A stretch of 64,000 nt of DNA from Escherichia coli (lineage in GTDB: Bacteria > Pseudomonadota > Gammaproteobacteria > Enterobacterales > Enterobacteriaceae). The translations under genes were made by a program, and so were the position numbers. Position 1 is the first letter of the stretch; each line of letters opens with the position of its first letter. Of the stretch, positions 22,859 through 23,023 are shown piece after piece. The notes under the pieces are model-generated. The model saw only the letters and a list, made by a program, of their open reading frames with translations. It had not been told where the DNA came from and made no database searches. The DNA lies in NCBI RefSeq assembly GCF_003334785.1, contig NZ_QOWV01000007.1; one strand, written 5' to 3'.

Positions 22859-22903
22859 AGTTATTTCCTTATTCTTAAGCAGGCGAAACAAAATCAAACG
22901 TTG

Positions 22904-22934
22904 AGCATAGTCCTTCCCCTTACGGGAAGGTCAA
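22904..22934 (-). promoter_or_regulatory. cueO promoter with MerR/CueR-type operator: -35 TTGACC, 19-bp spacer containing a 7-5-7 dyad, -10 TATGCT
   Basis: Minus strand reads TTGACC-ttcccgtaaggggaaggac-TATGCT; dyad ccttccc/gggaagg at 22912..22930; lies about 45 nt upstream of the cueO ATG. Confidence 0.75.
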
Positions 22935-23023
22935 GCCGCAGACACAATTTAATCGACAATAATGGTCGTCGCCTCGCTCGCAGTGTGCTAACGTTTATCT
23001 TCTTTAAGCCCCTGGTAGAAGCA

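Follow-up and report, generated by a model that had tools for sequence, protein, structure and literature searches.

The cueO promoter of Escherichia coli is very probably CueR-dependent, and the divergent gene yacC most probably lies outside CueR control

Results

The intergenic region between cueO and yacC of Escherichia coli very probably holds a CueR-dependent promoter of the MerR-family type that drives cueO, and yacC most probably stands outside CueR control. For cueO this reading is established knowledge and no discovery. The genes named as CueR targets in the literature are copA and cueO, a PcueO-lacZ fusion has served as a CueR reporter, and deletions of PcueO have also been used in published experiments.

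In the window, i.e. the whole stretch of 64,000 nucleotides of E. coli chromosome that was analysed, the genes around the site are gcd, cueO, yacC, speE, speD and acnB. The multicopper oxidase CueO (516 amino acids) is encoded on the minus strand at 21308..22858 according to the list of open reading frames, with its ATG at 22858. The protein is 100% identical to the entry 'multicopper oxidase CueO [Escherichia coli]', and the matching region is annotated as cueO in RefSeq. Reading the sequence upstream of the ATG places a ribosome-binding site, AAGGAA, at 22865..22870 on the same strand, 6 nt 5' of the start codon; its AAGG core varies little or not at all in an alignment of 74 distinct intergenic regions. 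On the plus strand, the open reading frame at 23024..23371 is yacC, which encodes a 115-amino-acid protein with a signal peptide, a member of the PulS/OutS-like family PF09691. The boundaries of the two reading frames leave an intergenic region of exactly 165 bp, 22859-23023, the same interval that a preliminary description of this DNA had given as the divergent cueO/yacC region. An alignment showed it to be 100% identical to its counterpart in K-12 MG1655, and coordinates were converted through this alignment (MG1655 position = 159941 minus window position).

A pattern search on the minus strand located the -35 hexamer TTGACC of PcueO at 22929..22934, the -10 hexamer TATGCT at 22904..22909 and, between them at 22910..22928, the spacer TTCCCGTAAGGGGAAGGAC, whose 19 bp exceed the sigma-70 optimum by two bases. 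This arrangement, which had been proposed for the cueO strand, is matched exactly (0 mismatches) at 22904-22934 and occurs a single time in the window. A dyad search found the putative CueR operator, the perfect dyad CCTTCCC-N5-GGGAAGG, at 22912..22930 with its centre at 22921, again as a single occurrence in the window, and the published CueR core CCTTCC-N7-GGAAGG lies exactly at 22913-22930 within this 7+7 dyad. The preliminary description had placed the dyad inside the spacer. The dyad is indeed perfect; it is not wholly inside, since two bases of its promoter-distal arm (22929-22930) are also the final two of the -35 hexamer. The inverted repeat of PcopA likewise overlaps its -35 element, and such an overlap is normal for CueR sites.

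By analogy to Klebsiella pneumoniae, where the mapped cueO transcription start site (TSS) is the sixth base 3' of the -10 hexamer in the orthologous TTGACC-N19-TAAGCT promoter, the CueR-dependent +1 of E. coli cueO is predicted at about 22898 on the minus strand (within 1-2 nt), so that the 5' UTR would measure about 40 nt. A consensus scan detected no ordinary promoter with a 16-18-bp spacer in the intergenic region.

The two hexamers are by themselves unremarkable: with one mismatch allowed, both were found at 19-bp spacing in 24 of 100 dinucleotide-preserving shuffles, a frequency that would favour a chance resemblance without function. The exact dyad, in contrast, appeared in none of the 100 shuffles, so that the signal lies in the dyad, its position and its conservation. 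A chance match is also at odds with the conservation of the arrangement in 79 species, in all of which the spacing is 19 bp, and with its identity to the experimentally studied K-12 promoter. We consider chance refuted by the conservation data and give it next to no probability.

The comparison with PcopA of MG1655 (TTGACCTTCCCCTTGCTGGAAGGTTTAACCT) supports CueR as the regulator. PcopA reads TTGACC-TTCCCCTTGCTGGAAGGTT-TAACCT and carries CCTTCC/GGAAGG half-sites in the same register as PcueO, so that the -35 hexamer, the 19-bp spacer, the half-site positions and the CueR regulator are common to both promoters. They differ in the central bases (CGTAAGG in cueO, CCTTGCT in copA), in the -10 hexamer (TATGCT in PcueO, TAACCT in PcopA) and in the way the dyad is extended: that of cueO grows to a perfect 7+7, whereas that of copA extends outward (ACCTTCC/GGAAGGT). 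PcueO further differs in having a divergent neighbour with a TSS 103 bp away. The gene for the regulator itself, cueR, is outside the window; it is carried by 5425 of 5426 complete E. coli genomes, including MG1655 (b0487), whose intergenic region is identical. Taken with the MG1655 identity, the CueR core box and the published status of cueO as a CueR target, the PcopA register bears out the copper-responsive MerR-type architecture that had been assigned to this site.

The 43-bp promoter, which carries no RefSeq annotation of its own, is found without any change in 5263 of 5423 E. coli records. A wider locus search was anchored on CueO and covered 80 Enterobacteriaceae species with CueO identities of 74-98%; the list of CueO homologues, mostly from Citrobacter, was used just for the alignment behind this search. 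TTGACC-N19-TA[T/A]GCT was kept in 79 of the 80 species, and the spacer was 19 bp long in every one. The -35 TTGACC is invariant in 78-80 of 80 promoters, and the -10 form TA[T/A]GCT is essentially invariant (80/80), as is the left half-site CCTTCC, while the right half-site is mostly GGGAGGG. A perfect 7+7 dyad was accordingly confined to 8 of the 80 promoters, those of E. coli and a few Citrobacter species, and in 48 of 80 the arms are complementary at 5 of 7 pairs. Elsewhere in the Enterobacteriaceae, for instance in K. pneumoniae and Salmonella, the cueO (cuiD) promoters resemble that of E. coli in their orthologous hexamers and in the divergent yacC; they differ in the mostly imperfect right half-site, and in a yacC side that is about 10 bp shorter.

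The lone exception, Intestinirhabdus alba, has no CueR-type promoter at cueO and is missing yacC. At its locus (positions 2100-3000) a gene for a methyl-accepting chemotaxis protein lies upstream of cueO in the same orientation, and the 900 bp 5' of cueO are G+C-rich and include no CueR-like box. Ten matches were also counted in plasmid records. On one plasmid, pE6474.2 (NZ_CP116983.1), cueO and a gcd fragment lie at 2609-5524, flanked on both sides by a transposase gene of ISVsa5 (IS4-like). The match to the window ends there at 22907, within the -10 hexamer, and this mobilised copy of cueO has therefore lost its CueR box.

Published start sites add a second signal on the cueO strand. Table S1 of Kim et al. 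2012 lists a minor TSS at MG1655 137002 (plus strand there; 20 reads, 81-nt UTR, no copper added), which is window position 22939 on the minus strand and is accompanied by a -10-like TAAATT at 22951..22946. It is the sole cueO-strand TSS in that data set, and it sits 5 bp upstream of the CueR -35 hexamer and not at the predicted +1. The sequence of this weak promoter is Escherichia-specific in the alignment of 74 intergenic regions. A transcript from it would cross the CueR-occupied operator and place the dyad in its 81-nt leader.

A rival reading takes the dyad as an RNA or DNA hairpin, for example a terminator or a 5'-UTR structure, and not as a protein site. The low-level start upstream of the CueR box does exist, and the leader from 22939 is predicted to fold with a 7-bp G+C-rich stem. 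This fold is, however, ordinary (z = -0.55), and 59 of 200 shuffled sequences gave folds that were equal or better. Neither strand shows a terminator-like site, no T run follows the stem, and searches against Rfam gave no family match, with sub-threshold noise alone. The genes diverge, so that no transcript needs terminating between them, and neither the cueO transcript predicted to depend on CueR nor the mapped yacC transcript begins within the dyad. The half-site sequence and the 19-bp register are kept in most genera despite the incomplete complementarity of the arms, which argues for a protein-binding site and not for a stem. The hairpin was rejected on the absence of a terminator, the unexceptional fold and the lack of an Rfam family, and its probability is negligible.

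The yacC promoter was missed by a scan for the canonical sigma-70 consensus, which found nothing on that side of the region, because it is of the extended -10 type; phylogenetic footprinting revealed it. The core promoter lies at 22966..22994 on the plus strand and comprises a weak -35-like TCGTCG (22966-22971), with an A/T-rich tract beyond it, a 17-bp spacer and the extended -10 TGcTAACGT, in which TG is at 22986-22987 and the hexamer at 22989-22994. The block GTRTGCTAACGTT (yacC sense, 22984-22996) corresponds to an extended -10 TGnTAAnnT that is conserved in 79 of 79 sequences (the window and 78 loci), and its TG, T-12, A-11 and T-7 are invariant in all of them. From this footprint the start of yacC was predicted at 23001-23003. 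Table S1 of Kim et al. 2012 has the yacC TSS at MG1655 136940 (minus strand there, 11 reads), i.e. at window position 23001 on the plus strand with a 23-nt 5' UTR, in agreement with the prediction, and the yacC starts of K. pneumoniae map to the equivalent -10 element. The intergenic region has two copies of the palindrome AACGTT, one at the predicted start of cueO (22898-22903) and one in the yacC -10 (22990-22995); the yacC copy alone is conserved in other genera.

RefSeq names the yacC product 'YacC family pilotin-like protein' and PF09691 is recorded on YacC homologues; YacC was shown not to be the GspD pilotin. The protein is 83-100% identical across the sampled Enterobacteriaceae, whereas its neighbour CueO is less conserved (74-98%). 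The family is small, with 440 database matches, and among the 120 matches listed all are at least 85% identical. Many YacC entries in the databases are 128 amino acids long, a length that in E. coli would correspond to an in-frame GTG at 22985. This GTG is upstream of the TSS at 23001 and inside the -10 region, and the 115-amino-acid form from 23024 is therefore taken as the real one.

The preliminary description had put the start of yacC about 90 bp beyond the dyad, and the measured distance from the dyad edge to the ATG at 23024 is in fact 93 bp. From this proximity it had proposed a possible influence of the CueR site on yacC as well, a suggestion that the results do not support. The dyad centre at 22921 is at -80 relative to the yacC TSS and outside its core promoter, and 35 bp separate the dyad edge from the -35-like element. 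The predicted cueO start and the yacC start are about 103 bp apart. Given the yacC start at 23001 and the position of its extended -10, PcueO and PyacC stand back to back without overlap. MerR-family proteins activate by reshaping the spacer of the promoter in which they are bound and not via upstream contacts; a CueR site at -80 would thus be unable to activate yacC in this way.

A bidirectional operator was weighed nonetheless. In this alternative CueR bound at -80 (-70/-71 in most genera), or the polymerase at PcueO, modulates yacC, which would tie the secreted YacC to copper homeostasis. Several features of the locus are in its favour. The divergent pair is kept, in a compact region of 140-200 bp, in 78 of 79 evaluable Enterobacteriaceae loci, compared with 62 of 80 for yacC-speE and 66 of 80 for cueO-gcd in the fetched flanks. 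The 103-bp distance between the starts suggests that two polymerases bound there would touch or overlap at the upstream edges of their footprints. Permina et al. 2006 listed the locus as the 'yacC-yacK divergon'. Finally, the dyad centre lies 70/71 bp from the yacC TSS in 60 loci, 80-82 in 14 and 91 in one, in steps of about one helical turn, with outliers of 67, 77, 115 and 126 (window and 78 related loci). These steps are suggestive of phasing between the two promoters, or may be due to chance. They go back, however, to roughly seven independent indels, of which two (77 and 67) fall out of phase, and the pattern was not regarded as significant; the region is a compact divergent promoter of the core genome. 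The bidirectional operator also has against it the location of the dyad well beyond the yacC core promoter, the dependence of MerR-family activation on a site in the promoter's own spacer, and the papers that enumerate CueR targets, which give copA and cueO alone. It is an improbable reading. A narrower form, in which PcueO and PyacC are helically phased (75 of 79 sequences) and CueR bending or polymerase loading tunes yacC modestly or conditionally, seems a shade less probable again.

Expression data point the same way. According to a 2026 RNA-seq preprint (bioRxiv 10.64898/2026.03.12.711415), cueO rises 44-fold and copA 115-fold in 2 mM copper, and yacC (b0122) is missing from its complete list of the 487 genes that go up at least 2-fold under this condition, which counts against an operator acting in both directions. 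This comparison comes from one preprint and concerns induction of at least 2-fold at 2 mM copper, so that repression or a smaller effect would be compatible with it. In the gene list quoted from Yamamoto and Ishihama, as far as it is quoted, yacC does not appear. In the coinage-metal RNA-seq supplement PMC13339815, one row with yacC and cueO gives both as not significant; it is apparently from the silver sheet and so uninformative. A Reg-Seq preprint that assayed the yacC promoter, with copper among its growth conditions, gave no yacC result in the text and supplement consulted. Full-text literature searches for a link between yacC and copper returned just Permina et al. 2006 and unrelated mentions. 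With its own promoter and TSS, a dyad at -80 and no place in the copper-induced list, yacC is most probably not under CueR control.

Discussion

The evidence favours a CueR-dependent promoter of cueO next to a separate promoter of yacC. In the mechanism that we propose, CueR, a MerR-family sensor of Cu(I), Ag(I) and Au(I) encoded elsewhere on the chromosome, would bind the dyad at 22912-22930 as a dimer. TTGACC is a good -35 hexamer, and at 19 bp it and the -10 TATGCT would be 2 bp too far apart and out of phase for the sigma-70 RNA polymerase, so that PcueO would be nearly silent without copper. CueR loaded with Cu(I) would kink and under-twist the spacer and bring the hexamers back into register. 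RNA polymerase would then initiate about 40 nt 5' of the cueO start codon, inducing the periplasmic multicopper oxidase. On the other strand, yacC has its own extended -10 promoter and is transcribed divergently from the TSS at 23001, some 103 bp from the cueO start and with the CueR site centred at -80.

Of the elements of this scheme, CueR binding, the distortion mechanism, the induction of cueO by copper and the finding that yacC is not among the induced genes come from the literature, while the architecture, the PcopA register, the MG1655 identity, the conservation and the yacC footprint were computed here. The distortion is known from a cryo-EM study of CueR with RNA polymerase on PcopA, in which the dimer bends and under-twists the 19-bp spacer and so realigns -35 and -10; the same study made mutants with the CueR box moved by 1 bp, testing positional effects. 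At PcueO, the dyad at 22912-22930 is a predicted site, and direct CueR binding to it is drawn from secondary citations. The primary demonstrations for CueR are reportedly those of Outten 2000 and Stoyanov 2001, which others cite. A literature search found no CueR ChIP-exo data.

Another known system is that of the mer operons of Tn21 and Tn501 (merR/merTPAD), where the dyad bound by the MerR-family dimer is likewise within a 19-bp spacer and a divergent gene adjoins it. There the two promoters overlap, and MerR occupies and represses the divergent one. The cueO locus differs in that the divergent promoter is separate, with the dyad at -80, and in that the divergent gene is not the regulator.

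The idea that yacC shares the site is not new, as the divergon was named in 2006. Permina et al. 2006 described this very locus, its 19-nt spacer included, as holding a candidate CueR site, and yacC received no experimental follow-up there.

Being one of the two canonical CueR targets, the cueO promoter has little discovery value. The useful outcome is the negative one: yacC has its own conserved extended -10 promoter, matched by a published TSS. With this promoter and no visible copper induction, adjacency to the CueR box should not be read as a functional clue for yacC. Judged by its sequence, YacC appears to be under strong constraint, with no known function. If a weak coupling to the cueO promoter did exist, it would be the first handle on the function of a protein that is so highly conserved yet without a known role, and it would give the periplasmic PulS/OutS-like YacC a part in the response to copper or in the envelope response.
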